A stretch of 64,000 bases of DNA, from contig JBBREA010000001.1 of NCBI GenBank assembly GCA_038203385.1, forward strand, positions 25,196 to 89,195. Reading direction: 5' to 3'. The notes beneath the pieces were generated by a model that worked only from the letters and a program-made list of their open reading frames with translations, made no database searches and was not told where the DNA came from. Positions 25,296 to 59,231 of the stretch are shown here, piece by piece (the stretch's first letter is position 1; each line of letters opens with the position of its first letter). The position numbers were made by a program, and so were the translations under genes. The stretch comes from Acidimicrobiales bacterium (GTDB taxonomy: Bacteria; Actinomycetota; Acidimicrobiia; Acidimicrobiales; Ilumatobacteraceae).

Positions 25296-25780
25296 GTCGA
25301 ACACTCCTTGTTGGAACAAACTCTGGCGGCGACTTGCCACCTCATGTTCATGACCTTCACGAACTCCTTGTCACAAAGAATCGAAAGACGGGCATCCTTG
25401 GATCGTTTGGTACGCAGTGACGTGGCGAACAAGAACTCGGTCGCGGCGGGAGGCATCGACAGCGGCTGCCTCGCGACGTGGACTCATGCCCGAACGTCTC
25501 TCACATCGACGCTCCGCGCGACGTCGGCCATGATGAAGCGGACGTCCGAAGCTGAGCAACACGTGCCCAGTGTCTGGCTGACTTCGCCGCGTTCCACTCG
25601 GGGACGGTGTTCACGTCTATACCTCCCGGGGTATGATGAAGCATCATCTGCGAGGAGACGCGTTCATGACGAAATGCCAGCAAGGGCTAAACGATGTCGC
25701 TTGGAGTTCGATCGCCGGATGTTCGCGGCATCGGCCGCTCGCGTCGAAGGTCGAGTTCGCATCGTGGGCGGCCGTTCGTG

Positions 25781-27157
25781 ATGCCTGAGATTGTCACGAT
25801 CGAGACCAAGTCGCTGGGCGACCGGAGCTACCTGGTGAGCGACGGCGAGGTGGCTGCCGTCATTGATCCCCAGCGCGACATCGACCGTGTGCTGGCCGTC
25901 GTAGAGCGCCTCGGTGTTCGGATCACTCACGTGTTCGAGACACATGTCCACAACGATTACGTGACCGGCGGGCTCGCGCTGGCCCGAGCAGTCGGGGCCG
26001 CCTACGTGTTGTCAGCTGCCGAGCACGTCGACTTCGATCATGTTGGCGTCGAGGACGACGACGAGATCCCCGTCGGGTGTTTCGTCGTTCGCGCTGTGCA
26101 CACGCCGGGGCACACACCGCATCACATGTCCTATGTGATCAGCGAGGCCGGACGTCCCTGCGCGGTGTTCACCGGCGGATCGATGTTGTATGGCACCGTC
26201 GGGCGTACTGATCTGATCGCCGATGAACAGACCGAGGAGCTGACGAGGGCGCAGTTCCGCTCGGTGCGGCGACTCGCAGCGGAGTTGCCTGACGATGTCG
26301 CGGTTCAACCGACCCACGGATTCGGCAGCTTCTGCTCGTCGACCGAGTCAAGTGGTACCGACGAGAGCACTATTGCCGTCGAGCGAACGACCAACGTCGC
26401 GCTCACCGTCGACGACGAAGACCGCTTCGTCGACACGCTGATGTCGGGCCTCACCGCCTACCCGCGCTACTACACCCACATGGGGCCCCGCAACCGGCAA
26501 GGCCCAACGGCGTCCGACCTGTCACCACCGACGCCGGTCGATCCGGTCGAGTTGCGCCGCCGCATCCACGCCGGCGACTGGGTAATCGACCTCCGCACTC
26601 GACAGGCATTCGCCCACTCCCACCTGGCCGGTACCATCAATGTCGCCCTGGACGACAAGTTCATCACCTACCTCGGCTGGACGATCCCCTGGGGCACACC
26701 GGTCACGCTGGTCGGCGACACAGCCGACGAGGTCGCAGTTGCGCAGCGCGACCTGGCCCGGATCGGAATCGACCGACCCACCGGAGCGGCGACCGGCGGC
26801 GTCCACGAGTGGGCAGCGGGCGGGGAGTTGCGTTCATATCGGAGGGCGACATTCGTCGAGCTGGCCCAAGAGATCGACCGCAAGGAGGTCGTGGTCCTTG
26901 ACGTCCGCCGCGGCGACGAGTGGTCCACAGGCCATCTCAGCGGAGCCGTTCACGTGCCACTCGATCGGCTCGAGGACCGACTGAGCGAGATACCTGACGG
27001 GCAGGTCTGGGTGCATTGCGCATCCGGTTACCGGGCCTCGATCGCCGCCTCGCTCCTCGACCGGGCCGGCCGCCGGGTCGTGCTGATCGACGACGACTGG
27101 ACATCCGTTCAACACCAACCCGGCCTTGCGGTGGCCGGGAAACCGCCGAGTCCGTAA
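25781..27157 (+). CDS. MBL-fold hydrolase with rhodanese domains (persulfide dioxygenase-sulfurtransferase-like)
   Basis: ETHVHNDY, HTPGHTPHH, PTHGFGSFC, C-terminal rhodanese HCASGYRA. Confidence 0.9.
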   Translation: MPEIVTIETKSLGDRSYLVSDGEVAAVIDPQRDIDRVLAVVERLGVRITHVFETHVHNDYVTGGLALARAVGAAYVLSAAEHVDFDHVGVEDDDEIPVGCFVVRAVHTPGHTPHHMSYVISEAGRPCAVFTGGSMLYGTVGRTDLIADEQTEELTRAQFRSVRRLAAELPDDVAVQPTHGFGSFCSSTESSGTDESTIAVERTTNVALTVDDEDRFVDTLMSGLTAYPRYYTHMGPRNRQGPTASDLSPPTPVDPVELRRRIHAGDWVIDLRTRQAFAHSHLAGTINVALDDKFITYLGWTIPWGTPVTLVGDTADEVAVAQRDLARIGIDRPTGAATGGVHEWAAGGELRSYRRATFVELAQEIDRKEVVVLDVRRGDEWSTGHLSGAVHVPLDRLEDRLSEIPDGQVWVHCASGYRASIAASLLDRAGRRVVLIDDDWTSVQHQPGLAVAGKPPSP

Positions 27158-27844: not shown

Positions 27845-28459
27845 TCAGTGCTCGCGCGTGCATGCTGCGATGAAGGCGTCGAGGGCATCGATCGTCGGGG
27901 TGACGCTGATCTCGCCGTTGCTGTTCGAGATGGACAGACCCGGGCTGAACACATTGCGGTCAGCGCAGAAGAAATGTGGCGAACCTTCCACATCGCGGGT
28001 CTGGCCATCCGTCCAATCCTGCAAAACGTCGTCGCGTTGGGACGGACCCGGTGAGCCCAGTCCGAACTCCGTTGCGATGTCGCCGAGTACCGCAGCGTCG
28101 CTCACATCACCGCCGTCGAGGAACAACGCCTTGCGCAACGCAAGGCTGACTTGCTCGCCAACCTCGTCACTGTGGCGATAGGCCAGTGCTGCCAGATCGA
28201 GCGCCGGCAGTGTTGTTGACGGGAGCCGCTGCGCATCGAACCCGGCGAACAGTGACGAGTCAACCTGGGCCTGCAAGGCGGCCACTTCGTCAGCGATCTT
28301 TCCTGGGTCGGTCGGTCCATCGTTGACCAGTTCCAACGGCCACGCTCGGGTCCTGATGCGCACGTCTTTGCCGAGCAGGGTTCGCCGGCTCGCCAGCTGG
28401 TGGAGCTGGACGTAGGCGAACGGGCAAGAGATGTCGGCAAACACTTCGATCATCGGCAT
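27845..28459 (-). CDS. DsbA/FrnE-like thioredoxin-fold protein
   Basis: DISCPFAY, GSPHFF. Confidence 0.85.
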   Translation of the reverse strand: MPMIEVFADISCPFAYVQLHQLASRRTLLGKDVRIRTRAWPLELVNDGPTDPGKIADEVAALQAQVDSSLFAGFDAQRLPSTTLPALDLAALAYRHSDEVGEQVSLALRKALFLDGGDVSDAAVLGDIATEFGLGSPGPSQRDDVLQDWTDGQTRDVEGSPHFFCADRNVFSPGLSISNSNGEISVTPTIDALDAFIAACTREH

Positions 28460-28889: not shown

Positions 28890-29489
28890 TGTGGTCACCG
28901 TCCGTACAGTCCGACTACGGCGCTGCAGTACTCCACAGTCCGGAAAACCGTCCGGGAAATCCGTCTGTTCCGTCCAGTTCGTATACCGGTCTACCATCAC
29001 CCCCCGCACAGGCGTCCGGATCCTGACGCCGGCCCGGTTCGTCCTGGACGTCTTGCGACATCACATAGTGACGGGGCGGTGTGTTGAACCGCGACCTTCG
29101 AGTTATGAGTCTGGGGTGCCCTCCGGCATCAGGGCATCAGCGAGGACATTGCATGGTCAAGCCGCTCTGCTCCGTCGAGGAGCATTTCCGCGTCGATCAT
29201 GCTGAGCGACACTCGGCCGGCGGTGCTGTCGGTCCGGTCGGCGTCGAAGTTGCGGCGCTCACTCGTCGACCACGTGTCGACAAGAACTCCCAGCGACCAC
29301 GGCCCCGACGGCCCCGTCGATCAGCTCGGCATCGTGCCGAGCCCTAGACCATCGTGGTCGGACCCGCAAGTGTTCCCCAACAACAAATGACCGTCGTGTC
29401 GCTACGGGCTGAGGCTGCCACGCTGGGCGGATCAGCTGACATTGCCCCGGGGGTCGACAGGTGATGGCGGTGGCTGCGAGAATGGAACC

Positions 29490-30248
29490 ATGAAGCTTGG
29501 GATCGTGGGCAAGGGCGGAGTCGGCAAGACGACGCTGTCGGCGTTGATCGCGGAGGAATTCGTGCGTCGGGGAAAGCGAGTCGTGGCGATCGACACCGAT
29601 TCCAATCCGAACCTCGGCATGTCACTCGGTCTCGAAGCAGGAGAGGTCGATGCGATGCCGGTCGTACCGCGCCGCCTTGCGCTGGGCGCAGACGGCGGGA
29701 TGAGCGGAGCAGAATTCCTCGCCGAATACGGCCGGCCCACGCCGGCGGGAGTCACGCTCGTGTCGGCAATGCGGGTCGACCAAGCGGGCGGCGGTTGAAC
29801 GTGTGGCAACCATGCTGCCGTGCGCAGCATGCTCGACAACCTGATGACTGACGACACCGACATCACGCTCGTGGACATGGAAGCCGGCTTGGAACACCTC
29901 AGCCGCTCCGGCGGAACGCTCGCCTATGCAGACGTGCTGGTCATGGTGATGGAACCAAGCCGCAAGTCCGTGCTCACCGCCGCGCGAACCGCTGCACTGG
30001 CGGACGAGCTCGGGATTCCGCGAACGCTCGCTGTCGGGAACAAGGCTCGCCCGGATGACGAGCAGTTCTTCGCCGACGCGTGCGCCGAGCACGGGGTCGA
30101 GCTCGCGGCGATCGTCCCCCTCGACGATGCGGTCACGACCGCCGATCGCAACGGAATCAGCGTTACGCAAGTGGGGGCGGACGCGGCTCGCCAGGCGGTG
30201 ATCCGGCTCGTCAACCACCTTGAATCACTGGAGGCGACGGTCTCCTAG
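29490..30248 (+). CDS. CooC-like nickel-insertion ATPase, predicted selenoprotein (Sec at codon 103, GGG-U-T-C)
   Basis: GKGGVGKTT, IDTDSNPNL, then in-frame TGA 29796-29798 continuing TCGNHAAV...VDMEAGLEHLSR. The two track ORFs are in the same frame. SECIS-like hairpin follows. Confidence 0.85.
29811..29831 (+). promoter_or_regulatory. Bacterial SECIS-like hairpin
   Basis: CATGCTGC-CGTGC-GCAGCATG: perfect 8-bp stem starting 12 nt after the UGA, with GU in the loop. Confidence 0.75.
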
Positions 30249-30973
30249 CCGGCCAAGAGGAGGGCGGCGAGGCCGCCGAGTGCGCACACGGCAGGCGCCT
30301 CGGGATCTGCGTCGAGCGGCGCACGATCTGCACGGTCGGCTGTGGGGATCGCGTCGTCCTCCGGCACGAAAAGCACCACGCGCCCATCAAGTGCTTTCTC
30401 CACTGCGATGCGGTCGACGTCGTCGACCATCCGGTTGGCGACGATGACGATCGGGCCCGACGTGTGCTCCGCAGCGAGCACAGCCGCCCTCGACGCGACC
30501 TCGAGCGACTTCACGGTCGGATCCGTCACGACGACGATTGCGTCGACGCGAGTCTCGCCGAGTCGGGTGAGCGTTCCCGTTCCGGCTTCGAAGTCGGCTA
30601 CGACGATCGTGTCCTCATCGATGTCGAGTCCGAGCAACTGCTCGGGGGAGACCCCGCATCAAGGGCAACCGTGGTCGGGGTCCTCGATTTTGGAGACCAT
30701 CGCCAGGCGGACTCCGTCTGGAGCGTCGGCGCCGAAGCGGTCGATGATCTCTTGCCAGGACCGAGCGTGCTCGACGTCGTCGCCGACCCCGTCGCGCAGC
30801 GAGAGCAGAGCCTCGGTCGCTGCCAGGCCCACTCCGAGCGACAATCCGAGGTTTGGATTGGTGTCACAGTCGAGGGCGACCACCCTGTGACCGGTCCTCG
30901 CGAGGGTGCGGGCGAGGATGGCAGATGTCGTCGTCTTGCCTGCACCGCCCTTGCCGACTACGGCGATCTTCAC
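30245..30973 (-). CDS. CooC-like ATPase, predicted selenoprotein (Sec at codon 105, C-P-U-C)
   Basis: GKGGAGKTT, LDCDTNPNL, HGCP-TGA(30661-30659)-CGVSPEQLL...ADFEAG. Track ORFs 30659-30973 and 30245-30637 are in frame. Confidence 0.83.
30626..30654 (-). promoter_or_regulatory. Bacterial SECIS-like hairpin
   Basis: Minus strand CCGAGC-AGTT-GCTCGG starting 13 nt after the UGA, G at loop position 2 followed by U. Possible lower stem GGGTC/GACTC. Confidence 0.72.
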
Positions 30974-31731
30974 GGCGACTCCCTTCTCAAAGTGTCGACC
31001 AGGGATCGTATCGCATCGACCGCCGGCGAACCCGGGGCGTAGTCGAGCAATGGCACCCCGGCTCGCTCGGCAGCCGCGACCTCACGGTCACGGGGCACGA
31101 CGCCGACGACGCGCAGGCCGCTGAATTCCGCCAGACGCGTCGCGTCTGGCGTACCGATCGCTTTGTTCGCGATCGCCACAACCCGTTGACCGCTGCCGCC
31201 GGGGGCCGCAAGCCGCGCGAGTCGGCGCGCCGACAGCATCGACGAGGGAGTGGCCTCGGCCACCACCACCAACATGTCAGCGAAGCCGGCCCATCCGAAG
31301 AACGCCTGCCGGGTGCCGCCCGGGAGGTCCCCCACGAGGTGCAGGTCGGTCGTCTCGGCAAGTGCGCGCACGATGAGCCGGAAACCCTGCTGCGCCGGAC
31401 CGACGGAGCGAACATGACCGCGCGGCTTGCCGAATTGCAAGAGTCGAACACCGTCAGGTCCCTCGGCCGCGTACGCATCGATCGCCTCGATCCCCATCAT
31501 CCCGCCCCGGAGTTGCCACTCGCTGTCAGGACCGTTTCCGATCTTCTCGGCGAGATCCGCCGGGAGGGCAGTGTCGGTGCTCGGGACGCCGAGGGAGATC
31601 GCGAGGCCAGGCAGTGGGTCGCTGTCGATCGCGACGACTCCACGATCGTCGGTTCGTGCGAGTAGACGACAGAACGAGCCGGCGATCACCGACTTGCCTG
31701 CACCTCCCTTGCCGACAAACGCGATTCGCAT
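30970..31731 (-). CDS. CooC-like ATPase lacking the CxC motif
   Basis: MRIAFVGKGGAGKS, IDSDPLPGL, GPDGVRLLQFGK. GHVRS replaces the Cys motif and GDLPGG occupies the switch region. Confidence 0.8.
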   Translation of the reverse strand: MRIAFVGKGGAGKSVIAGSFCRLLARTDDRGVVAIDSDPLPGLAISLGVPSTDTALPADLAEKIGNGPDSEWQLRGGMMGIEAIDAYAAEGPDGVRLLQFGKPRGHVRSVGPAQQGFRLIVRALAETTDLHLVGDLPGGTRQAFFGWAGFADMLVVVAEATPSSMLSARRLARLAAPGGSGQRVVAIANKAIGTPDATRLAEFSGLRVVGVVPRDREVAAAERAGVPLLDYAPGSPAVDAIRSLVDTLRRESP

Positions 31732-31754
31732 GGTGACCAGCCTCCCACAGCGCG

Positions 31755-34040
31755 TCAGCACGTCGCAGCCGCGATCGCGGCCTGACCGATGCTGATGCCT
31801 CCGTCGTTCGGCGGGACCCGGCGGTGGACGAGGACCTCCAAGCCCGCATCGACGACGGCGCTCTCGACGAGCGATGTCAGCATCGCGTTCTGGAACACGC
31901 CTCCGGTGAGCGCCACGGTCTGCAACCGCTCCCGGCGGGCGATGACGATCGCCGCTCGGGCGAGCCCGCTGGCCAGGCGCCTGTGGAAGTCGATGGCGAT
32001 CTCGGGCGCCGATCGCCCTGCGATCCGGCCCGCCAAGGCATCGGCGACGAGCGCCGATGGGTCAAGCACCCATGGGCGGTCCGCATCCGGCTCCCCGATC
32101 CAGGTCCCGTCCACCGACGGAGCAGAACGCTCTTCGACGTAAGCGCTGGCGGCCGCCTCGAGTTCGACCGCAGCCTGTCCCTCGTAGCTCACCGTTGGGC
32201 GGAAGCCGGCGAGCGCGGCGATCGCGTCGAACAATCGGCCGCCGCTCGAGGTCATCGCGGTAGCACGGTGGTCGGACAGGGAGAGCACCGCTCGCCACCG
32301 AGGGTCGAGAGTCGGGCCGAGGTGGGCTGCGGCATCCGGACCGGAGGCGACGGCGACCCACGCAAGGGCCATCCGCCACGGCTCGCGAATCGCGACCGAT
32401 CCGCCCGGCAGCGGAACGGGACGCAAGTGACCGACCCGCCTGGATTCGCGAAGGTCCGCCACCAAGAGCTCGCCTCCCCACAGGCTGCCGTCCGATCCCA
32501 TCCCGAGCCCGTCGAACGCGACGCCGAGCACGGGTCCCGTCCGGCCGTGATCGACGAGGCATGACGCCACGTGCGCGTGATGGTGTTGAACGCCGAGAAC
32601 GTGCCTATCGGAATCAACAGCCCACTTCGTCGACAAGTACTCGGGATGGAGATCGTGGACAACCACCTCAGGGTCGATGCCCGTGAGCTCGACGAGATGA
32701 GCGATCGCCTGCTCGAACGCCGCGTACGCGGCGGGGTGCTCCAGGTCGCCGAGATGGTGGCTGGCGACGATCTGATCACCGGCAGCGACGGCGACGGTGT
32801 TCTTCAGCTCGGCACCGACAGCGAGGATCCTGAGCACAGCCGGGCTCGGCAGTCGCAACGACTCCGGCGCATACCCACGCGAGCGGCGCACGAGCTGCGC
32901 CCGCCCACCGACGGCGCGCACCACCGAGTCATCGCAGCGGATCTCGATCGGCCGGTCGTGGTGCAAGAAGCCGTCACAGAGGTGTGTGAGGTGCGCTCGG
33001 GCCATGTCGATGCCGGCGGCGATCGGCTCGTGGGTGCGGTTGCCGCTGGTCATCACGAGCGGGCGGCCGACTCCCTCGAGGAGGAGGTGATGAAGCGGGC
33101 TGTACGCCATCATCACGCCGACATCGGGCAACCCCGGCGCGACGCCGGTTGCGATGGTCGTGTGCCTGCGGCGGCGCGCAATCACGATCGGCCGCCGCTG
33201 AGAGGTCAGCTCTGCGCGACCAGAGTGGTCGAGCGTGACGAGTGCCGAGGCCTCCTCCGCAGATGCGACCATCACAGCGAAGGGCTTGTCGTCTCGTGCC
33301 TTTCGTTTGCGCAGGCGGTCAACGGCGGCGGCGTCGTCCGCAATGACCGCCAAGTGATAGCCGCCGAGTCCTTTCACGGCGACGATTTCTCCCTCGAGCA
33401 GGGACGAGATTGCAGCAGCGAGCGCGTGTTCTCCGCTCAACGAGGTGCGAATCTCACCGGCGCGTTCCCACATCAGCGTCGGTCCGCAGGCGGGGCAAGC
33501 GATCGGCTCGGCGTGGAACCGCCGGTCGGCGGGGTCGTCGTACTCCGCGCGACAGGAAACACACAGGGGAAATCCGGCCATCGTGGTGCTGGCGCGGTCG
33601 TACGGGAGCGAGCGGATGATCGTGTATCGCGGCCCGCAGTCAGCACAGTTGGTGAACGGGTAACGAAAGCGGCGCGCCAACGGATCACGCATCTCCTGAA
33701 GGCACGCTTCACAGGTCGCCACGTCAACGGGCACTGCCAGCGCCGGGCCGGTGCCCGCCGTACTCGGTACCACATCGAAGCCGCGCAACCCGTCGGCTGC
33801 GATCTCGGCGATCTCGATGAGATTGATTCGCGCCAGAGCGGGCGGCATTCGGTGGAGACGCTCGACGAAGGCGTCCAGCGGCGCGGATTCTCCTTCGATC
33901 TCGATGATCAGCCGATCCCGTTCGTTACCTGCCCAACCGTCGAGGCCGAGCTCACGAGCCTGACGTACCGCCCACGGTCGGAACCCGACGCCCTGCACCG
34001 CGCCGTCGACGACGACCCTTCGGCGGAGCCGCGGGCCCAT
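31755..34040 (-). CDS. hypF: Carbamoyltransferase HypF
   Basis: VQGVGFRP acylphosphatase domain, CxxC zinc fingers, KGLGGYHL, HHHAH, PPNDGGISIGQ. Confidence 0.95.
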   Translation of the reverse strand: MGPRLRRRVVVDGAVQGVGFRPWAVRQARELGLDGWAGNERDRLIIEIEGESAPLDAFVERLHRMPPALARINLIEIAEIAADGLRGFDVVPSTAGTGPALAVPVDVATCEACLQEMRDPLARRFRYPFTNCADCGPRYTIIRSLPYDRASTTMAGFPLCVSCRAEYDDPADRRFHAEPIACPACGPTLMWERAGEIRTSLSGEHALAAAISSLLEGEIVAVKGLGGYHLAVIADDAAAVDRLRKRKARDDKPFAVMVASAEEASALVTLDHSGRAELTSQRRPIVIARRRRHTTIATGVAPGLPDVGVMMAYSPLHHLLLEGVGRPLVMTSGNRTHEPIAAGIDMARAHLTHLCDGFLHHDRPIEIRCDDSVVRAVGGRAQLVRRSRGYAPESLRLPSPAVLRILAVGAELKNTVAVAAGDQIVASHHLGDLEHPAAYAAFEQAIAHLVELTGIDPEVVVHDLHPEYLSTKWAVDSDRHVLGVQHHHAHVASCLVDHGRTGPVLGVAFDGLGMGSDGSLWGGELLVADLRESRRVGHLRPVPLPGGSVAIREPWRMALAWVAVASGPDAAAHLGPTLDPRWRAVLSLSDHRATAMTSSGGRLFDAIAALAGFRPTVSYEGQAAVELEAAASAYVEERSAPSVDGTWIGEPDADRPWVLDPSALVADALAGRIAGRSAPEIAIDFHRRLASGLARAAIVIARRERLQTVALTGGVFQNAMLTSLVESAVVDAGLEVLVHRRVPPNDGGISIGQAAIAAATC

Positions 34041-35131
34041 CAGCAGATGCGCGGCAGGGGGTCGCCGACGAGGAGATCGACGATCCGTGCCCCACCGAAG
34101 GCGGTCGTCATCGTGACCATGCCAGGAGGCTCCGAGGTCACCTCGCCGATCACGGCGGCACCGCGCCCGAGGGGGTGAGCGCTCATGGCGGCAAGCGCAG
34201 CGCCGGTCTGATTCGGCGGGACGATCGCCACGAGGCGCCCTTCGTTGGCGACGTACAGCGGATCGATGCCGAGCAGCTCGCACGCCGCCCTGACCTCTGG
34301 TCGCACCGGGAGAGCGGCCTCGTCCAGCACGACGCCGCAGGCAGCCGCCACTGCGAGCTCGTTCACAGCGCTGGCCACGCCGCCCCGCGTCGGATCACGC
34401 AGCCAACGGGTCTGGGGTGCAGCAGTCATCAACACCTCCACGAGTCCGTTGAGGGCGGCGGTGTCGGACCGAACGTCGGCCTCGATCGCAAGATCCCCTC
34501 TGGCGAGCATGATCGCGATCCCGTGGTCACCGATCGATCCGGAGACGATCACGCAATCTCCTGGGCGGACGAGCTCATGGGACAGGCGGCGCCCTTGCGG
34601 GACGACGCCGACTCCGGTGGTGGTGATGAACAGCCGATCCGCGGCGCCCCGCGGCACGACCTTGGTGTCACCGGCGACGATCTCCACCCCGGCGATGGAG
34701 GCGGCCGCCGCCATGTCGGCCACGAAACCGCGCAGTTCGTCGACGGCGAGGCCCTCCTCGAGGACAAAGGCTGCGCTGATCCACGACGGCTGCGCGCCGA
34801 CCATCGCCAGGTCGTTCACCGTCCCGTTGATGGCGAGATCGCCGATCGAGCCGCCAGGAAAGCGCTGCGGTGTCACGACGTACGAGTCGGTGGTGATCGC
34901 GACGCGCTCACCGCCGATCTCGACCACCGCGGCGTCGTCCATCCGCCTCAGCACAGGATTCGCGAACGCGTCGAGGAACACCGCGTCGATCAGCGCAGCC
35001 GATGCTTTGCCACCGGCGCCGTGGGCCGTGGTGACGTGGGAGTCGGTGAGTCGCGGTCGTCGGCGGCGGAACTTCTCGATTCTGGCCTGAACTGCAGCCT
35101 CGCGATCTGCAGTGCCGTCCCCGGCGGTCAT
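34040..35131 (-). CDS. hypE: Hydrogenase maturation protein HypE
   Basis: HGAGG, GDTKVV, RDPTRGG, C-terminal LPRIC. Confidence 0.96.
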   Translation of the reverse strand: MTAGDGTADREAAVQARIEKFRRRRPRLTDSHVTTAHGAGGKASAALIDAVFLDAFANPVLRRMDDAAVVEIGGERVAITTDSYVVTPQRFPGGSIGDLAINGTVNDLAMVGAQPSWISAAFVLEEGLAVDELRGFVADMAAAASIAGVEIVAGDTKVVPRGAADRLFITTTGVGVVPQGRRLSHELVRPGDCVIVSGSIGDHGIAIMLARGDLAIEADVRSDTAALNGLVEVLMTAAPQTRWLRDPTRGGVASAVNELAVAAACGVVLDEAALPVRPEVRAACELLGIDPLYVANEGRLVAIVPPNQTGAALAAMSAHPLGRGAAVIGEVTSEPPGMVTMTTAFGGARIVDLLVGDPLPRIC

Positions 35132-36252
35132 CCGGCGGTGACCGGAATCCGACCCCGGCCAGCGAAGCGGCCGAAGTTGTAGTAGGCGGCGCACGCGCCC
35201 TCGGACGAAACCATGCAGGTGCCGATGGGCGTCTCCGGGGTGCATCCCGTGCCGAACACCTTGCACTCCCACGGTTTGATGACGCCCTTCAGGACTTCCC
35301 CGCACTGGCAAGCCTTTGGATCCGCGACGCGCACTCCCGGGATCTCGAATCGATCCTCGGCGTCCCATGCAGCGAACTCGGGACGAAGTTTCAGCGCACT
35401 CTGCGAGATGAATCCAAGGCCTCGCCACTCGAAGTGCGGCCGCAGCTCGAACACCTCACGCAGCACTGCAATCGCTCGCGAGTTGCCCTGCTCACGCACG
35501 CACCGGATGTATTGGTTCTCCACCTCGCAACGGCCCTCCGCGATCTGGCGCAGCAGCATGACGATCGCCTGGAGGATGTCGAGTGGCTCGAAGCCAGCCG
35601 TGACGAGCGGCTTGCCGTACTGCGCGGGCACGAAGCGGAACGGCGCGTTGCCGACAACTGTGGCCACGTGTCCCGGACCGAGGAAGCCGTCCAAGCGGAG
35701 GTCGGGAGATCCGAGTATCGCCCGCAGCGGGGGAACGATCGTCACATGGTTGGAGAAGACCGAAAAATTTGCGACCCTCGCCTCGCGAGCTCGGAGGAGC
35801 GTCAAGGCGGTGGACGGCGCAGTGGTCTCGAATCCGACGGCGAAGAACACGACCTCGCGGTCAGGGTTGCGCTCGGCCAGTTGCAGCGCGTCCATCGGCG
35901 AGTACACCATCCGCACGTCGGCCCCGTGCGCCTTCGCCTCGAGCAGCGTGCCCGAACCGCCCGGCACGCGCATCATGTCGCCGAAACTCGTGAATATCAC
36001 CCCAGGCTGCTGGGCGACGGCGATCGCGTCGTCCACCCGTCCCATCGGGATGACGCACACCGGGCATCCGGGCCCGTGGACGAGCTCGACGTTCTCGGGC
36101 AAGAGACCCTCGATCCCGTGCCGGTAAATGGTGTGAGTGTGCCCGCCGCACACCTCCATGAAAGCGAGCGGGGTGCTACCCGCAAGGAGGTAAATCTCGG
36201 TGAGCACCGCTTGCGCCGCCACCGGATCGCGAAACTCGTCGACGAACCTCAC
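35128..36252 (-). CDS. hypD: Hydrogenase maturation protein HypD
   Basis: MEVCGGHTH, GPGCPVC, GFETT, CMVSSEGACAA. Confidence 0.96.
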   Translation of the reverse strand: MRFVDEFRDPVAAQAVLTEIYLLAGSTPLAFMEVCGGHTHTIYRHGIEGLLPENVELVHGPGCPVCVIPMGRVDDAIAVAQQPGVIFTSFGDMMRVPGGSGTLLEAKAHGADVRMVYSPMDALQLAERNPDREVVFFAVGFETTAPSTALTLLRAREARVANFSVFSNHVTIVPPLRAILGSPDLRLDGFLGPGHVATVVGNAPFRFVPAQYGKPLVTAGFEPLDILQAIVMLLRQIAEGRCEVENQYIRCVREQGNSRAIAVLREVFELRPHFEWRGLGFISQSALKLRPEFAAWDAEDRFEIPGVRVADPKACQCGEVLKGVIKPWECKVFGTGCTPETPIGTCMVSSEGACAAYYNFGRFAGRGRIPVTAG

Positions 36253-36896
36253 GACGGCCCAGGTCGTTCGAGGTGAGTGCTGATCAGCGCCACGAGCTTT
36301 GCTGCGACGGCGGTCTGCGCCTCCTGGATTCGGTGCACGGAGTCGGAGTCGATGCACAGACAATGATCCACGCGCGTCCGCAACGCACCGCCTCCGTAGC
36401 CGGCGATGGCGATCGTGAGGATCCCTCCGCGGCGCGCGTGGTCCACCGCGGCAAGGACGTTCGCCGAGCCCCCGCTCGTCGAGAACGCGATGACGACGTC
36501 GCCCGGGCGCCCGTGGGCTGCGAGTTGGCGAGCGAAGATCACGTCAATTCCTATGTCGTTGGCGAGCGCAGTCAGCACAGCCGGCTCTGCGGCAAGCGAG
36601 ATAGCCGGCAGCGAACGGGGTGCGGCGGCATCGCACATCCGCACGAACGCGGAGGCGTCGGTAGCGCTCCCCCCGTTGCCCAACGCGAGAATCCGACCGC
36701 CTGCGCGCACACGGCCTGCGGCAGGGATGGCGGCTTGCGTGAGCTCCGCCTCGAGCTCGACGAGAGTTCGCTGCCTGAGAGTTCGGCTTTCGTCCCACTT
36801 CGCCGCCGCCGAACGTCCGAGGTCGGCCAGCACCTCCGCAGGATCGCGAGCGGTCTCGCCGAGGAACGGATAGAGGAAACCTGTGTCCTCAACCAC
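36249..36896 (-). CDS. SIS-domain (GmhA-like) protein in the hyp operon
   Basis: GNGGSATDA, TALAND, FSTSGGSAN, HRIQEAQ. Confidence 0.88.
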   Translation of the reverse strand: MVEDTGFLYPFLGETARDPAEVLADLGRSAAAKWDESRTLRQRTLVELEAELTQAAIPAAGRVRAGGRILALGNGGSATDASAFVRMCDAAAPRSLPAISLAAEPAVLTALANDIGIDVIFARQLAAHGRPGDVVIAFSTSGGSANVLAAVDHARRGGILTIAIAGYGGGALRTRVDHCLCIDSDSVHRIQEAQTAVAAKLVALISTHLERPGPS

Positions 36897-37584
36897 GAGT
36901 GGCTCCGAGGATCACGGGCGCTTCCAACCGTTTGATCGCGACACCTGCGTGCACAATGACCAGATCGCCCGACTGACACGGCTCCACGAGGGTCAGGTCG
37001 ATGTGACGGCGGAGGCCGGCCACGATGACCGTGGAGTCGAATCCCGCGGTCGCGACGTCGACCTCGCCGAGCTCGCCTGCATCCATGCAGGCGGGACACG
37101 TCGAAGCCTCGGCGGCACCGTCGAGTAGGTCGGGTTGCTCGGAGCACACGTGGGTGAGCTCCCACAGCAGGTGGTAGGCGCAGACGATGTCAGCATGGTC
37201 GGCCGCCGCGCCGAGCCACACCACGTTCGCGCCTGTATCGATGGTCGGCCGCTCGCCGTGAGCGAGCAGGATCGCGCCGATACCCCACGCTGGGGCGCGC
37301 CCGACAACGTCGAGGAGTCCGGCGTCGTCTCCGGACCCGATTGCGACGAGGACGTCACCGGGCCGTGCGGAGTGCCGTAGACGAGCGGCTGCACCGTCGG
37401 GTGCCAACACGATCGCGGGTCGGGCGCGCTTGCCGACGATCACCGGGTGCACGAACTCCACCGCAAGGTGCTCGGCGTGGGTGGGCCACGCCGGCGACCA
37501 GCACCACAGAGTCGCCCCCCGATGGAAATGACGCGCAAGGACGAGCGACGCAGACGCGAGCGCATCATGTGGTGCAGCGGTCAC
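36889..37584 (-). CDS. Degenerate SIS domain fused to a CxxC-HypC/HupF-like domain
   Basis: HLAVEFVHPVIVGKRA...YHLLWELTHVC, then CPAC and GDLVIVHAGVAI. Confidence 0.75.
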   Translation of the reverse strand: MTAAPHDALASASLVLARHFHRGATLWCWSPAWPTHAEHLAVEFVHPVIVGKRARPAIVLAPDGAAARLRHSARPGDVLVAIGSGDDAGLLDVVGRAPAWGIGAILLAHGERPTIDTGANVVWLGAAADHADIVCAYHLLWELTHVCSEQPDLLDGAAEASTCPACMDAGELGEVDVATAGFDSTVIVAGLRRHIDLTLVEPCQSGDLVIVHAGVAIKRLEAPVILGATRG

Positions 37585-37859
37585 GGCGATGAGCCTTGCT
37601 CCATCTGCGCGATCTCCTCGTCGTAGACGGAACCCAGCATCTTGATGAAGTCCAGCGTGCGCTTCGCCTCGTCCTCGTCGATCTTCGCCATTGCGAATCC
37701 GACGTGGATCAGCACCCAGTCTCCGACACCGATCCCACCCTCGTCACCGGCAACCAGTTCGACGTTGACCTCGCGCCGCACGCCATCCACTTCCGCCACG
37801 GCCTGGTGCGGTCGCGCTGGATCGTAGACGACTATCTGGCCGGGGAGCCCGAGGCACAT
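37581..37859 (-). CDS. hypC: Hydrogenase chaperone HypC
   Basis: MCLGLPGQI, GDWVLIHVGFAM. Confidence 0.96.
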   Translation of the reverse strand: MCLGLPGQIVVYDPARPHQAVAEVDGVRREVNVELVAGDEGGIGVGDWVLIHVGFAMAKIDEDEAKRTLDFIKMLGSVYDEEIAQMEQGSSP

Positions 37860-38632
37860 CAGCGAACCCCTGTTCTCGCGGCGAGAACCGCATCGAGCAC
37901 TCGGCCCACAGCGACGGACACGGGCCCGGCGGGGTCGGCGTCGAGCAGGGGGCGAGCCGTGCGGTCGGCGTCGATCACGGCATCCGAAAACGGGACTTCA
38001 CCGAGGCGGGCCAGCCCATGGCGATCGCAGAACTCTGCCACGGCTTCACTGTCGGCCACCGAGCGAACCTTGTTCGCGACTACGACCGTGCGCGTGGATG
38101 GCAGCTCGGCGGCGAGGTCGGCCAGTCGACGCGTCGCTTCCAGAGAGCGGTAGTACGGCTCGGTGACGAGCACAAGCACGTCCGCGAATCGAGCAGTGCC
38201 GCGGCTCACATGCTCGGGAGACGCCTCGAGGTCGACGACCGTGAGCGTTTCTGGTTGTGTCTCGCCGAGTTCTGCGAGCACCGCACTGACGGCAGCGTGT
38301 GCAGAGCACAGACAGCCCTCACCGGCATGCGCTGGCGCACCCATGAGGAGCAGACGCACGCCGTCCGGTGCGACGGTGCCGTGCGCGGCAAACACCTCGT
38401 CGACCGACACGGTGAGACTGGGCCCGGTGAGCTTGCGCGAAACGGACGAGGCCGGGATTCCCGCGAGTCCAGCCGCAAGAGCGGGGGCCACTCCGAGCGC
38501 GGCGGCGATGTTCGGGTTGCTGTCGGCATCGATCGCGACGACGTTCATGCCTCGACGCGCGGCGAGGCGAGCCAGCGTGGCCGCGATCGTCGTCTTGCCG
38601 GCACCGCCCTTTCCCGCCAACGCAACCCTCAC
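37859..38632 (-). CDS. CooC-like nickel-insertion ATPase with canonical Cys motif
   Basis: GKGGAGKTT, IDADSNPN, GEGCLCSAH, VDLEASPEHVSRG. Confidence 0.88.
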   Translation of the reverse strand: MRVALAGKGGAGKTTIAATLARLAARRGMNVVAIDADSNPNIAAALGVAPALAAGLAGIPASSVSRKLTGPSLTVSVDEVFAAHGTVAPDGVRLLLMGAPAHAGEGCLCSAHAAVSAVLAELGETQPETLTVVDLEASPEHVSRGTARFADVLVLVTEPYYRSLEATRRLADLAAELPSTRTVVVANKVRSVADSEAVAEFCDRHGLARLGEVPFSDAVIDADRTARPLLDADPAGPVSVAVGRVLDAVLAARTGVR

Positions 38633-40207: not shown

Positions 40208-40277
40208 TAGATGCAATATACACCGACCGGCCCGCCGACGATGCACCGGAGAACCCAATAGGTGTATCTTGCACCTA
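40208..40277. promoter_or_regulatory. Pair of inverted 17-bp operator-like sites in the divergent hydrogenase promoter
   Basis: tagatgcaatatacacc (40208-40224) vs ggtgtatcttgcaccta (40261-40277) match 15/17 as inverted copies. Each contains GTGTA-N3-TGCAY. Confidence 0.55.
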
Positions 40278-40301
40278 GACGCACGATGGAGGGGGTTTCC
40301 G

Positions 40302-41651
40302 ATGTCCCAGGATGGCGACGGCCAGCCCGAACCGGTCGACGCACCGACCGCAGGGCAACCACACGGAACTGGCGCTGGTCCCGACCACGCTGGCGGTGTT
40401 TCCACCGACTCGCCGGCAACGGCGGGCGAGCCCGTCTCACTCGGCCAGGGCGGCGCGATGCCCGGCGGCGCGGAGATGGACCAATGGGAGTCCTCCAGCA
40501 TCGATCCGCTGGCGCCGATCGCGATCCGCAGCCGGTCGATGGTCGAGCCAGATGACACGTTGCGCATCGGCCCGCTGCGCAAGATCTATCTCATCTGGCT
40601 CGTCGGCGCATCGTGTGACGGTTGCACGGTCGCCGTGTCGGGCGCGACGCACCCGCGCGTCGAGCACCTCCTCGCAGGGATCATCCCGGGGCTTCCGCGC
40701 GTGGAGATCATCCACACCGTCTTGTCCGTCGAGTCTGGCGCGGAGTGGGTTGCAAATCTGTTCATGGCAGAGGCCGGCGAGCTCGACGCCCCCTACGTGA
40801 TCACATGGGAGGGATCGGTGATGGACGAGACCCTCTCCGGCGACGGCTACTGGATGGGCCTCGGCGAGGACCCCGAGACGGGGCGCCAGATCACCAGCCT
40901 CGAGTGGCTCGATCGCCTGGCACCGGGCGCTGCGGCGGTGATCGCCATCGGCACCTGTGCGACGTGGGGCGGAATCCCGGCGGCGAAGGGCAACCCGACC
41001 AACGCGATGGGGGTGATGGACCACCTCGGCAAGGACTACGTCTCCGCGCTGGGAGTGCCGGTGGTCAACGTCCCCGGCTGTGCCCCGGTGGGCGACAACT
41101 ACCTGGAGACGGCAGCGGCGGTGCTGCTGTTCTTGAACGGGATCGCACCGCTACCGGAATTCGACGAGCTCGGGCGACCGGCGTGGCTGTTCGGCGAGAC
41201 GGTCCATCGGCACTGCCCCCGCGCCGGCTACTACGAGGAGGGCGTGTTCGCCGAGGCGTATGGCGACAAGGAGTGCCTGGTCGAGCTCGGCTGCTGGGGG
41301 CCCGTGGTTCAGTGCAACATCGCCGAGCGAGGCATGCTCGACGGACACGGCGGCTGCATGCAGATGGGCGGGATTTGCATCGGGTGCACCATGCCGGGTT
41401 TCCCCGACAAGTTCTCGCCGTTTTACGAGGCACCCCCAGGTGCCATGTTGTCGAGTACGACGAGCAGGGTCACCGGCGGGTTCATCCGGCGAATGCGCGA
41501 GGTGAGCCAGGCCGACAAGAACATGTCTGCGCGCTGGGAAGACGACGCGCCAAGTGCATGGGCGCGCAACCGCACGGGGCCGCGGGGCGCCGTCAAGCTG
41601 CTGCACCGGTTCTATTCCAAGCATCAGCACTCGAAAGAGTCCTACAACTAA
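40302..41651 (+). CDS. [NiFe]-hydrogenase small subunit (no Tat signal)
   Basis: SCDGC, GTCATWGGIP, PGCAP, HRHC, CLVELGC, GGICIGCTMPGFPD. GGAGG RBS. Confidence 0.93.
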   Translation: MSQDGDGQPEPVDAPTAGQPHGTGAGPDHAGGVSTDSPATAGEPVSLGQGGAMPGGAEMDQWESSSIDPLAPIAIRSRSMVEPDDTLRIGPLRKIYLIWLVGASCDGCTVAVSGATHPRVEHLLAGIIPGLPRVEIIHTVLSVESGAEWVANLFMAEAGELDAPYVITWEGSVMDETLSGDGYWMGLGEDPETGRQITSLEWLDRLAPGAAAVIAIGTCATWGGIPAAKGNPTNAMGVMDHLGKDYVSALGVPVVNVPGCAPVGDNYLETAAAVLLFLNGIAPLPEFDELGRPAWLFGETVHRHCPRAGYYEEGVFAEAYGDKECLVELGCWGPVVQCNIAERGMLDGHGGCMQMGGICIGCTMPGFPDKFSPFYEAPPGAMLSSTTSRVTGGFIRRMREVSQADKNMSARWEDDAPSAWARNRTGPRGAVKLLHRFYSKHQHSKESYN

Positions 41652-41670
41652 CCCGGCCGGAGGGCTCACA

Positions 41671-43551
41671 ATGTGCTTCAAGAACCTGCCCATCGAGTTC
41701 GACCTCGACGGCAACGCCCGACTGCGAGACGGCATCGACGACCCGTACGCCGTGACGGTGGCTGCACCGAAGGAGTACGTGCGGCTGCCCGACGGCCCCG
41801 GGGCCACGTCGGCGGCGCCGCCACGTCTGCGCGACTGGAGCATCGACCCGGTGACGCGTGTCGCCGGCGCGCTGGCAGTGCACACCGTGCTCGATCTCGA
41901 CAAGCGCGAAGCGGTCGAGGCCCACTCCCAGGCGATGCTCTTCCGTGGGTACGAGGTGATCCTCAAGGGCCGAGACCCGCGCGACGCGATCGACATCAGC
42001 TCGCGGGCGTGTGGCGTGTGCGGTGGCGTCCACTCCACGGTCTCGGCGCTCGCGATCGAGCAGGCGTTCGGGATCTGTCCGCCTCCGCTCGGCGTCCTCG
42101 TTCGCAACCTCGGCGAGGTCGGGGAGATGTTCTACGACCATCCGCTCCATCTAGGTCTCCTCGCCGGGCCGGATTACTCCACCTCCATCGTCGCCGTCAC
42201 CAACCCCGAACTCGTCACGCTGGCCGAGCGCACGCCCGCCCGTCATGCCGACGTGCACGGGTTCAAGACGATGAAGGACCTCATGGATGCCCTCAACCCG
42301 TTGACGGGCAAGATCTACCTCGAGTCGCTCGAGTACACCCGCGTCGGCCGGATCATGTGCATGCAGATGTACGGAAAGTACCCGCATCCCTCGACGCTGG
42401 TCCCGGGTGGCGTGTCGACCACGATCAGCACGTCGTCGTTCAACGAGTACTACACCCAGCTCGGCAAGATCTTCGACTACTGCAAGGTCATGGCGGCCAC
42501 GTGGGACGACATCGCCGACTTTTTTCTCGAGGCGAACCCCGAGTACGAGCGGGTCGGCGCCCGACCCACCAACCTGATCCAGACCGGCATCTGGGACGAC
42601 CCGGAGGCGTACGACGCGACCTACGCGAACTGCAACGAGTGGGGCGACAAACGGTGGGCGCTGCCGGGGATCATCCTCGACGGCGAGCTGCGTACGACCC
42701 GATTGACAGACATCAACATGGGGGTCGAGGAGTTCGTCGAGCACTCCTACTACGACGACTGGACGGTCGGGACCACACCCCGGTTCGCCGCCGATCCGCT
42801 CGGCAACCCGATCTCGCCCTACCACGCCTGGAACAAGGAGACGATCCCCCGCCCGCAGGGCAAGAACTTCAAGGAGAAGTACAGCTGGGATTGCGCGCCG
42901 CGGTGGGACCGACAGGTGATGGAGACCGGCACCTACGGGCGGATGTGGACGACAGCGCTCGCCGGCCGCACCCCCGACAACCCGTTCCTCGAATCCACCG
43001 GCGACGGGCTGCGGATCGTCCTCCCCCGCCATGGGCTGCCCGAGATGGAGCTCAATTGGAAGGTCCCGCGGACGCTCAACGCCCTCGAGCGCAACCGTGG
43101 CCGTGCGTACGCAATGGGTTTCACCGCTGCGATCGGCATGAACTGCATCCTCAAGGCGTTCGAATACTGGCGCAACGGCGAGACGGCGGTCAGTGTGCCG
43201 TACAAGGTGCCCAAGGACGAGCGAGTGGCAGTGGGATTCTGGGAGGCCGGCCGCGGGTTCCTCACCCATCACCTACACATGGACGGTGGAAAGATCGTGA
43301 ACTACCAGATCAACACCCCATCCACGTGGAACGCCTCGCCGCGCGACCCCTTCGGCAACCCAGGCCCGTATGAGCAAGCGATCGTCGGAACCCCGATCTT
43401 GGAGAGCGTGAGCGACGAAAACGTGAAGGGGATCGACATCCTGCGCGCCATCCGCAGCTTCGACCCCTGCATGCCGTGCACCACGCACATGGATACCGGC
43501 AGAGGTGTCATTGTGCGTGAGGTGAACTCCTGCGGCTGCACGCTCGAATGA
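41671..43551 (+). CDS. [NiFe]-hydrogenase large subunit (group 1, probably 1l-like)
   Basis: IDPVTRVAG, L1 SRACGVCGGVH, L2 RSFDPCMPCTTH with a C-terminal extension. Confidence 0.95.
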   Translation: MCFKNLPIEFDLDGNARLRDGIDDPYAVTVAAPKEYVRLPDGPGATSAAPPRLRDWSIDPVTRVAGALAVHTVLDLDKREAVEAHSQAMLFRGYEVILKGRDPRDAIDISSRACGVCGGVHSTVSALAIEQAFGICPPPLGVLVRNLGEVGEMFYDHPLHLGLLAGPDYSTSIVAVTNPELVTLAERTPARHADVHGFKTMKDLMDALNPLTGKIYLESLEYTRVGRIMCMQMYGKYPHPSTLVPGGVSTTISTSSFNEYYTQLGKIFDYCKVMAATWDDIADFFLEANPEYERVGARPTNLIQTGIWDDPEAYDATYANCNEWGDKRWALPGIILDGELRTTRLTDINMGVEEFVEHSYYDDWTVGTTPRFAADPLGNPISPYHAWNKETIPRPQGKNFKEKYSWDCAPRWDRQVMETGTYGRMWTTALAGRTPDNPFLESTGDGLRIVLPRHGLPEMELNWKVPRTLNALERNRGRAYAMGFTAAIGMNCILKAFEYWRNGETAVSVPYKVPKDERVAVGFWEAGRGFLTHHLHMDGGKIVNYQINTPSTWNASPRDPFGNPGPYEQAIVGTPILESVSDENVKGIDILRAIRSFDPCMPCTTHMDTGRGVIVREVNSCGCTLE

Positions 43552-59024: not shown

Positions 59025-59152
59025 GCATCGTGAGCGGCCTGACGCCGGTTTGCCGGAAAGCCCGACCACATTCCACGCCGAAGCGTAGGAGGCACCTTGG
59101 GGACGTTGCCCAGGTTGCCGGGCTCGGTATGCCGAGCCGCTCTTGATGCGAT
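59025..59152 (-). ncRNA. SAM-I-clan riboswitch (SAM-I/IV-like variant)
   Basis: Minus strand cgcATCAAGAG...GGCAACC...AAGGTGCC...atgtg, P1 CGCAU/AUGUG, directly upstream of metX. Confidence 0.85.
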
Positions 59153-59231
59153 CGTCACCATACCGCAACCAGAAGGCCCACAGCTCGGTTGATTCGATCT
59201 TGTGGCTCGTGGCGTTGGTTCGTGTTGGTCG

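Follow-up and report, generated by a model that had tools for sequence, protein, structure and literature searches.

Results

A CooC-type ATPase gene with an in-frame UGA codon

The gene at positions 29490 to 30248 of the stretch analysed here (64,000 nucleotides of an Acidimicrobiales genome, hereafter the window) is one intact CooC-type metal-chaperone ATPase gene and not two open reading frames (ORFs), and the UGA codon that interrupts it is very probably decoded as selenocysteine (Sec) at residue 103. Sec decoding had first been inferred from the letters of the window; it is now supported by the alternation of Sec and Cys codons among homologues, by stem covariation limited to TGA-bearing forms, by selection on the 3' half of the gene, and by contigs from other studies. 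A single frame runs on the forward strand from ATG at 29490 to TAG at 30246-30248, with TGA at 29796-29798 as the sole internal stop and 252 residues if this codon is read through. Standard gene calling yields two ORFs instead (29442-29798 and 29820-30248). That these halves are nonetheless in frame and make up one CooC-like protein had been noticed in the sequence-only reading, and our translation confirms it.

The protein matches the CobQ/CobB/MinD/ParA nucleotide-binding family in Pfam (CbiA, PF01656, E 5.7e-14) and also the NUBPL/ParA iron-transfer family and NifH, and scanning it against NCBIfam gave no model at cut-off and no selenoprotein model among the matches. Among proteins of solved structure it matches CooC1 of Carboxydothermus hydrogenoformans best (PDB 3KJE, E 1.7e-21), in which Cys112-Tyr-Cys114 aligns with U103-T-C105 of the window protein, i.e., U103 falls on Cys112 and C105 on Cys114. 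An AlphaFold2 monomer model built from 55 sequences has a predicted local distance difference test score (pLDDT) of 82.6, and its top Foldseek matches are archaeal MinD (1HYQ) and, again, CooC1 (3KJE). Residues G7, K8, G9, G10, G12, and K13 of the Walker A motif are invariant in the alignment of homologues. The candidate Sec lies in the motif GGG-U103-T-C105-GNHAAV, and in a BLASTP comparison with a paralogue in the same gene island (37859-38632 on the reverse strand; E 1e-40, 41% identity) the residue that faces U103 is the first Cys of AGEG-C-L-C-SAHAAV, just as had been proposed from the sequence.

TGA and cysteine codons alternate among homologues

Homologues were collected by scanning one genome per prokaryotic species, which gave 80 related loci, and by tblastn within these loci (more than 140 bits, with the motif covered). 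The resulting 85 homologues are 36-80% identical to the window protein and represent no fewer than 10 phyla. Where U103 aligns, the codon is TGA in 36 of them and TGC or TGT in the other 49, so that the expectation of orthologues with either TGA or a Cys codon at this position was borne out. The TGA forms are spread over seven phyla (Actinomycetota, Chloroflexota, Acidobacteriota, Gemmatimonadota, Armatimonadota, Myxococcota, and SAR324). Among full-length homologues (n = 81), TGA forms have a single in-frame stop except for two that have two, and Cys forms have none. A Chloroflexota homologue with two stops reads G-TGA-T-TGA-G (L059:1452-1460), and both positions of its CxC motif would be Sec. 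In a separate sample of 201 genomes of the same order we found 26 matches in 15 genomes, evenly divided between 13 with one TGA and 13 without a stop.

A quick maximum-likelihood tree implies about 10 switches between Sec and Cys, of which at least five are forced by well-supported branches. The window protein itself is sister to a Cys form with TGC (locus L018), which at 80% identity is its nearest relative. Some genomes (G104, G160, and G231; loci L028/L035 and L029/L036) carry both a Sec and a Cys homologue of the same type as the window gene (type 1 of four CooC-type paralogues in the window) on different contigs. Presence in the order sample is patchy: the gene occurs in 14 other genomes of the order and in none of four others sampled from the window's family, one of them of the same genus, which suggests that the hydrogenase island in which it lies (see below) has been gained and lost. 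Three of the genomes used are unpublished, namely G008 (locus L056; two of the 36 TGA sequences and two rows of the tree), G215 (one match with one TGA in the order sample), and G031 (one TGA match to a paralogue treated below, outside the six-genome comparison made there); dropping them leaves the conclusions unaltered.

A SECIS-type hairpin restricted to TGA-bearing genes

Downstream of the TGA lies the hairpin CAUGCUGC-CGUGC-GCAGCAUG, a perfect 8-bp stem with a minimum free energy (MFE) of -11.7 kcal/mol that starts 12 nt past the codon. The sequence-only reading had described it as a perfect hairpin with a CGUGC loop at this distance and as resembling a selenocysteine insertion sequence (SECIS), and it is indeed present at 29811-29831. 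Published rules for bacterial SECIS elements (bSECIS; PMC13188914, Fig. 2A) ask for a loop of 3-9 nt, a stem of 4-16 bp, and a G in the first two loop positions, and further for 16-37 nt between UGA and loop, an MFE of at most -7.5 kcal/mol, and a loop G that is followed by G or U (PMC13188914). The hairpin satisfies all of them, with a 5-nt loop, G at position 2 followed by U, 8 bp, a distance of 20 nt, and the MFE given above.

The forward strand of the window has 19 hairpins of this kind (perfect 8-bp stem, loop of 3-9 nt, G early in the loop), a frequency at which about 0.0065 would be expected within the allowed spacing of any given TGA. The 61-nt fold around the hairpin is no better than that of shuffled sequences (z about 0), and Rfam, which has no models for bacterial SECIS elements of this sort, returned no SECIS-type family at gathering score or at E<=10. 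By itself, the hairpin is a modest signal; it is the comparative data that raise it far above chance.

For this comparison we counted consecutive pairs outward from the loop in a fixed 8-5-8 register beginning 12 nt past the codon, with the window included among 37 TGA forms. The TGA forms have a median of five consecutive pairs, with at least five in 31 of 37, versus a median of one in the Cys forms, of which a single sequence among 49 reaches five (Mann-Whitney p 4e-14). The median MFE of the 21-nt segment is -7.5 kcal/mol in TGA forms and -2.9 kcal/mol in Cys forms. The MFE of 48-nt segments fails to separate the two groups in this GC-rich DNA, and only the fixed-register stem count did so.

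The stem is preserved by varied arms (GCUGC/GCAGC, GCCAC/GUGGC, GUCAC/GUGAC, GCUUC/GAAGC, GCUAC/GUAGC, and GCCGC/GCGGC). In the alignment of TGA forms 77% of cells are paired, 35 cells are changed on both sides, and the covariation score is 0.339, a value attained by none of 500 shuffles (shuffled mean 0.162). The corresponding figures for the Cys alignment are 57%, 16 cells, and 0.127, and two pairs next but one to the loop are unpaired there in 36-38 of 48 sequences. Registers slid along the TGA alignment are paired in 18-42% of cells. The compensatory stem changes that had been suggested as a check thus exist and are confined to TGA-bearing homologues. The stem is no by-product of the protein sequence because H-A-x-V-R-x is conserved in the TGA and Cys sets alike. 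The loop follows the pattern N-G-U-N-C in homologues, most often as CGUGC (23 times) or GGUCC (11 times). The stem owes its completion to precisely the three synonymous differences that separate the window from its sister L018 in this region (His CAC>CAT, Ala GCC>GCT, and Arg CGG>CGC), which argues against a recent accidental nonsense mutation.

Evidence for translation past the UGA

Should the TGA really terminate translation, we would be dealing with a pseudogene or with a gene for a 102-residue N-terminal fragment, perhaps together with a separately initiated C-terminal piece. Such a reading would agree with the splitting of the gene by standard gene calling, with the single base change that could turn the TGC of L018 into TGA, and with the failure to find a tRNA for Sec (tRNA-Sec) in the metagenome-assembled genome (MAG) from which the window comes. 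We nonetheless consider it very improbable: the same codon is TGA in 36 homologues of seven phyla whose frames are otherwise open, and the TGA of the window is accompanied by the three synonymous changes to which the hairpin, lacking in L018, is due. Moreover, the 3' half of the gene is under purifying selection similar to the 5' half. Nei-Gojobori dN/dS (the ratio of nonsynonymous to synonymous substitution rates) ranges from 0.04 to 0.51 downstream of the codon and from 0.07 to 0.36 upstream in 11 pairs (10 that compare two TGA forms and one that compares the window with the Cys form L018), and the relaxed selection on the 3' half that could have spoken for a decaying gene was not seen. Re-initiation fares no better as an explanation because the sole nearby potential restart, the Val codon GTG inside the hairpin loop, reads GTC or GTT in 13 of the 37 TGA forms, and a split gene with a second start is hence not conserved. 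Reassignment of UGA throughout the genome does not apply either, since TGA terminates most ordinary genes here.

A sequencing or assembly error that replaced TGC or TGT is easy to imagine for a single base in a MAG, and it had been named among the outcomes that could undo the Sec prediction. We give it next to no weight. Logan contigs from soil and air metagenomes of two other studies extend across the site (94-99% identity), and neither of the two records (X2 record 9, covering 29447-29923, and X4 record 19, covering 29478-29842) has a difference at 29796-29798 among the differences listed, although many are found elsewhere; these contigs therefore retain the TGA as far as the listed differences go. 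In addition, 36 independent assemblies carry TGA at the same codon.

Selenocysteine machinery and a codon-anticodon natural experiment

The source MAG (3.36 Mb, 88% complete, 255 contigs) has selD as well as selA and selB side by side, and all three genes score above curated cut-offs. It also contains a second kind of predicted selenoprotein, an fdhA-like gene (G000:C31:25466-26029) that reads CNRT-TGA-HAPSV and thus has the UHxP Sec motif. Of the four genes that the sequence-only reading had suggested to look for in the host, selA, selB, and selD were accordingly present and selC was not found in this 88%-complete genome. The pathway is nonetheless at hand among relatives, with tRNA-Sec above cut-off in five of five other carriers examined; in the closest relative it is located at a contig end. 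The possibility that Sec machinery might be missing from the host and from other carriers alike is thereby set aside.

The paralogue that converges on the window gene, type 2, has an in-frame TGA of its own within the motif G-C-P-U-C-G, and its hairpin CCGAGC-AGUU-GCUCGG is conserved in TGA forms. Relatives of type 2 include Cys forms (GCPCCG) and forms with two TGA codons that read G-U-P-U-C-G (loci L044 and L061), and its cultured carriers include Pseudonocardia nigra and Geodermatophilus chilensis. Strains in culture that carry the gene set include P. nigra DSM 104088, G. chilensis B12, and Haloechinothrix species. The stop codons of the type-2 gene and of the gene at 29490-30248 overlap in the palindrome CTAG.

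In the family Geodermatophilaceae, the type-2 Sec site is TAG in three genomes (G007, which is Geodermatophilus chilensis, at locus L110; G049 at L109; and G057 at L111) with a tRNA-Sec that has the anticodon CUA, and TGA in three others (G015, G026, and G068) with the anticodon UCA. Here, tRNA-Sec means a tRNA that matches the tRNA-Sec model; such tRNAs are located in L103, L118, and L119. Codon and anticodon hence agree in six of six genomes, and since the stop varies with the anticodon, it is tRNA-Sec that decodes the stop in this protein family. Both tRNA-Sec with CUA and TAG-encoded Sec are documented in Geodermatophilaceae (PMC5330540, citing Mukai et al. 2016), and the selenoproteins listed there include no CooC-type genes (PMC5330540). 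Our observations add a CooC-type gene to the known TAG-Sec genes of this family.

This natural experiment also bears on a reading in which the UGA is passed without Sec, either by near-cognate insertion of Trp or Cys aided by the hairpin or by Cys carried on tRNA-Sec in times of selenium shortage. Readthrough can in general be stimulated by downstream hairpins, insertion of Cys via the Sec pathway under selenium limitation is known, and sequence cannot tell which residue is inserted. Even so, we regard this possibility as improbable because the site alternates with Cys codons only and lies inside a metal-binding motif, because the spacing of the hairpin and its loop G-U fit the SelB-type bSECIS model, because all carriers tested have tRNA-Sec, and because the switch from TGA to TAG together with the tRNA-Sec anticodon in the paralogue is explicable only by decoding through tRNA-Sec.

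A putative nickel chaperone for the neighbouring hydrogenase

Based on these data, we propose the following sequence of events. SelB bound to GTP and Sec-tRNASec would bind the hairpin at 29811-29831 while the UGA sits in the ribosomal A site, Sec would enter as residue 103, and translation would go on to the TAG at 30246; as far as sequence alone can tell, this decoding step is established. Sec103 and Cys105 would then form a U-x-C version of the CxC motif of CooC1. In CooC1 this motif binds Ni(II) or Zn where two ATP-bound protomers meet, at a dimer interface that depends on ATP. By analogy, a dimer of the window protein may hold nickel in a 2Se+2S site and release it upon ATP hydrolysis, and its client would be the large subunit of the adjacent, group 1h-like and O2-insensitive [NiFe]-hydrogenase. 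Taken as a whole, this account (a full-length selenoprotein ATPase with SelB-type decoding, a nickel site, and a hydrogenase client) appears highly likely to us, the Sec decoding more so than the nickel delivery, which we hold to be somewhat more probable than not.

The gene lies in an island of hyp and [NiFe]-hydrogenase genes (Table 1). The large subunit of the hydrogenase has no internal stop, and its best PDB match is 5AA5, the group 1h "actinobacterial" hydrogenase of Ralstonia (E 3.6e-152). Profile searches of the contigs of the MAG found neither HypB nor HypA above cut-off, and HypB exceeded the cut-off in three of 12 other carriers but not in the remaining nine, some of which are complete or near-complete genomes. 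In such an island without hypA and hypB, the ATPase probably loads nickel; with the hydrogenase large subunit as its likely client, it would replace HypA and HypB, which were not found here. Among the 80 related loci, hydrogenase or hyp genes lie within 6 kb in 33 (about 40%) from several phyla, and the closest homologues adjoin them. We lean towards delivery of nickel to the neighbouring hydrogenase as the function of this ATPase.

Several observations weigh against this account, be it on the side of decoding or of function. ARAGORN, Rfam RF01852, and BLAST with the tRNA-Sec of relatives all failed to detect tRNA-Sec in the 88%-complete MAG, and a permissive Rfam scan (E<=1) around its selA, selB, and selD genes did not detect it either. 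The presence of selA does not separate the two forms, since it is found in four of five TGA carriers and in four of five carriers with Cys forms only; selA is therefore necessary but not discriminating, presumably because other selenoproteins maintain the pathway. The type-1 genes of Geodermatophilaceae are all Cys forms, so the codon-anticodon comparison is confined to the paralogue. The motif loop (residues 96-106) has a pLDDT below 50 in the monomer model, as expected for an interface loop modelled as a monomer. Nickel delivery itself draws on homology and gene neighbourhood, and one subclade of homologues in which the second Cys is replaced by Gly (motif G-U-T-G; L062, L063, L066, L069, L071, L072, L077, L079, and L084, with L073 as a Cys-form member) lies away from any hydrogenase. 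Its client may differ, given that no hydrogenase is found within 6 kb. The neighbours of L063 include genes for cytochrome b, hemerythrin, a short-chain dehydrogenase/reductase, a BNR protein, and tandem further CooC-like ATPases.

The protein could accordingly be a selenoprotein that is not a nickel insertase for hydrogenase, e.g., an Fe-S carrier akin to Mrp/NBP35, a factor for another metalloenzyme, or a scaffold or regulator within the set of four paralogues. This would suit the Pfam matches to the NUBPL/ParA iron-transfer family and NifH, the NifU-like gene in the island, the location of U-T-G homologues away from hydrogenases and next to genes such as those for cytochrome b and hemerythrin, and the divided roles that four paralogues suggest. 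We nevertheless think such a role rather unlikely in view of CooC1 as by far the best match with its CxC motif aligned residue for residue, the hyp and hydrogenase genes beside the closest homologues, and the failure to find HypA and HypB in the MAG or HypB above cut-off in nine of 12 other carriers.

With nickel delivery as the favoured role, we tentatively entertain a broader view in which the set of four CooC-type ATPases, of which two are selenoproteins, jointly acts as a machine that inserts nickel into O2-insensitive, high-affinity [NiFe]-hydrogenases without HypA/HypB and thus serves a selenium-dependent oxidation of atmospheric H2. As to why Sec should be used instead of Cys, we can only speculate that a fully ionised selenolate, quicker metal exchange, or easier reversal of oxidation in air might be of advantage.

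Comparison with known systems

The closest known protein, CooC1, inserts nickel into Ni,Fe-CO dehydrogenase in an ATP-dependent manner (PDB 3KJE-3KJI) and has in common with the window protein the GKGGVGKT motif, the switch II pattern DM-x-AG-x-EH, the fold, and a similar length. Unlike CooC1, the window protein has Sec as the first metal ligand, followed by a conserved His108, and is one of four paralogues. It is also encoded amid hyp genes and an aerobic-type [NiFe]-hydrogenase, and the MAG has no match to CooS (PF03063, CooS/prismane). Given that no CO dehydrogenase partner was found, the protein is CooC-like by fold and motif and not a CooC in the strict sense.

A cluster described by Ray et al. 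(2022; PMC9561532) resembles that of the window with its adjacent small and large subunits, NifU-like Fe-S assembly protein, tetratricopeptide repeat (TPR) protein, BirA homologue, and CooC-type ATPase. That paper cites the CooC-type gene as a component of the cluster, and the cluster description in its main text contains neither an in-frame UGA nor Sec (PMC9561532). The hydrogenase of the window can be called 1h-like from its best PDB match 5AA5, and its likeness to group 1m comes from gene content and not from phylogeny.

HypB, a G3E GTPase, and HypA have the same presumed role of providing the large subunit, in a nucleotide-driven manner, with nickel once HypCDEF have put Fe(CN)2CO in place, and they are likewise located in hyp clusters. 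In contrast to HypB, the window protein belongs to another NTPase family, would use ATP instead of GTP, and does not match TIGR00073, i.e., it is not a HypB member. The nearest catalogued precedent in concept is a CobW-related selenoprotein (a G3E GTPase of COG0523), a nucleotide-dependent metallochaperone with Sec in place of a Cys of its metal motif. It differs from the window protein by its unrelated NTPase family, by a UxxC instead of a UxC motif, and by the lack of a hydrogenase context. Selenium is likewise a ligand or handler of nickel in hydrogen metabolism in the large subunits of [NiFeSe] hydrogenases (PMC13188914), where Sec is found in the catalytic subunit of enzymes from anaerobes, whereas here it would be found in a maturation ATPase of an aerobic-type enzyme.

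Among the 119 families and subfamilies of prokaryotic selenoproteins catalogued in May 2026 (PMC13188914), none is of CooC/MinD/ParA type, and CooC/MinD-type ATPases go unmentioned in the main texts of recent papers on selenoprotein prediction and databases. A 2026 paper on Sec-containing group 4 hydrogenases names hypA-F as the only maturation genes. Our literature search found no earlier description of CooC/MinD-type selenoproteins or of Sec in hydrogenase maturation factors, and the full-length Cys homologues bear public names such as "AAA family ATPase", "P-loop NTPase", or "CO dehydrogenase maturation factor". UGA decoding follows the usual bacterial mechanism, the protein has the fold and motif of CooC, and the selenoprotein family is absent from published catalogues. 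Because gene callers split or truncate such genes, an abundant selenoprotein family has become invisible in databases and hydrogenase clusters look broken.

This family would place Sec in a metal-trafficking site instead of a redox site. It offers a candidate route of nickel supply to the hydrogenases of soil bacteria that consume atmospheric H2 where hypA and hypB are absent, and it predicts a selenium requirement for this supply. If the broader view of a four-ATPase machine holds, the oxidation of atmospheric H2 in many soil Actinomycetota, Chloroflexota, Gemmatimonadota, and others would depend on the supply of selenium, and the selenolate-nickel site would be adaptive in that it allows a metal site of thiolate type to function in air.

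Other features of the gene, the island, and its flanks

Features of the gene and of the island are collected in Table 1. The promoter-like site ends 6 nt upstream of the ATG at 29490, so the mRNA may be leaderless. Downstream of the hydrogenase subunits follow genes for NifU-like, TPR, and BirA-like proteins, and a PadR regulator gene is also part of the island.

Table 1. Coordinates, strand, and supporting evidence of features in the window.
Feature	Position	Strand	Evidence
Promoter-like site TCGACA-18-GAGAAT, TG-extended (weak)	29454..29483	+	Consensus scan alone; 0.2 such sites expected in shuffles
Coding sequence of CooC/MinD-type P-loop ATPase, 252 aa, with one UGA (predicted Sec103)	29490..30248	+	Translation, Pfam, 3KJE, AlphaFold2/Foldseek
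GKGGVGKT (residues 7-14), a deviant Walker A motif whose Lys8 is the signature of dimer-dependent MinD/CooC ATPases	29508..29531	+	Sequence
UGA codon, predicted Sec U103, counterpart of CooC1 Cys112 (CxC nickel site)	29796..29798	+	3KJE alignment, homologue codons
Cys105 codon TGT, second residue of U-x-C, counterpart of CooC1 Cys114	29802..29804	+	3KJE alignment
bSECIS hairpin within the coding sequence, codons His108-Met114, 8-bp stem, 5-nt loop CGUGC	29811..29831	+	Folding, covariation, bSECIS rules
Switch II DMEAGLEH, residues 129-136, matching CooC1 DMGAGIEH	29874..29897	+	3KJE alignment; near-invariant among homologues
Convergent paralogue type 2, in-frame TGA at 30659-30661, motif G-C-P-U-C-G	30245..30973	-	Translation; conserved TGA and hairpin
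Paralogue type 3, CooC-like ATPase without Cys/Sec motif	30970..31761	-	Sequence comparison
hypF, hypE, hypD, a gene for a SIS-domain protein, and hypC, which serve the Fe(CN)2CO branch of [NiFe]-hydrogenase maturation	31755..37584	-	Pfam
Paralogue type 4, CooC-like ATPase with all-Cys motif G-C-L-C-S	37859..38632	-	BLASTP
Genes for the [NiFe]-hydrogenase subunits (small and large)	40269..43551	+	Pfam; large subunit versus 5AA5

The flanks of the island contain a gene for a protein with metallo-beta-lactamase fold and rhodanese domain (25694-27157, forward strand) and a DsbA-like gene (27845-28459, reverse strand), and the ORFs scanned there have no internal stop. Rhodanese and DsbA families have selenoprotein forms elsewhere. 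Further along the window, positions 59036-59154 of the reverse strand match the S-adenosylmethionine (SAM)-I/IV riboswitch above the Rfam gathering score (46.7 bits).

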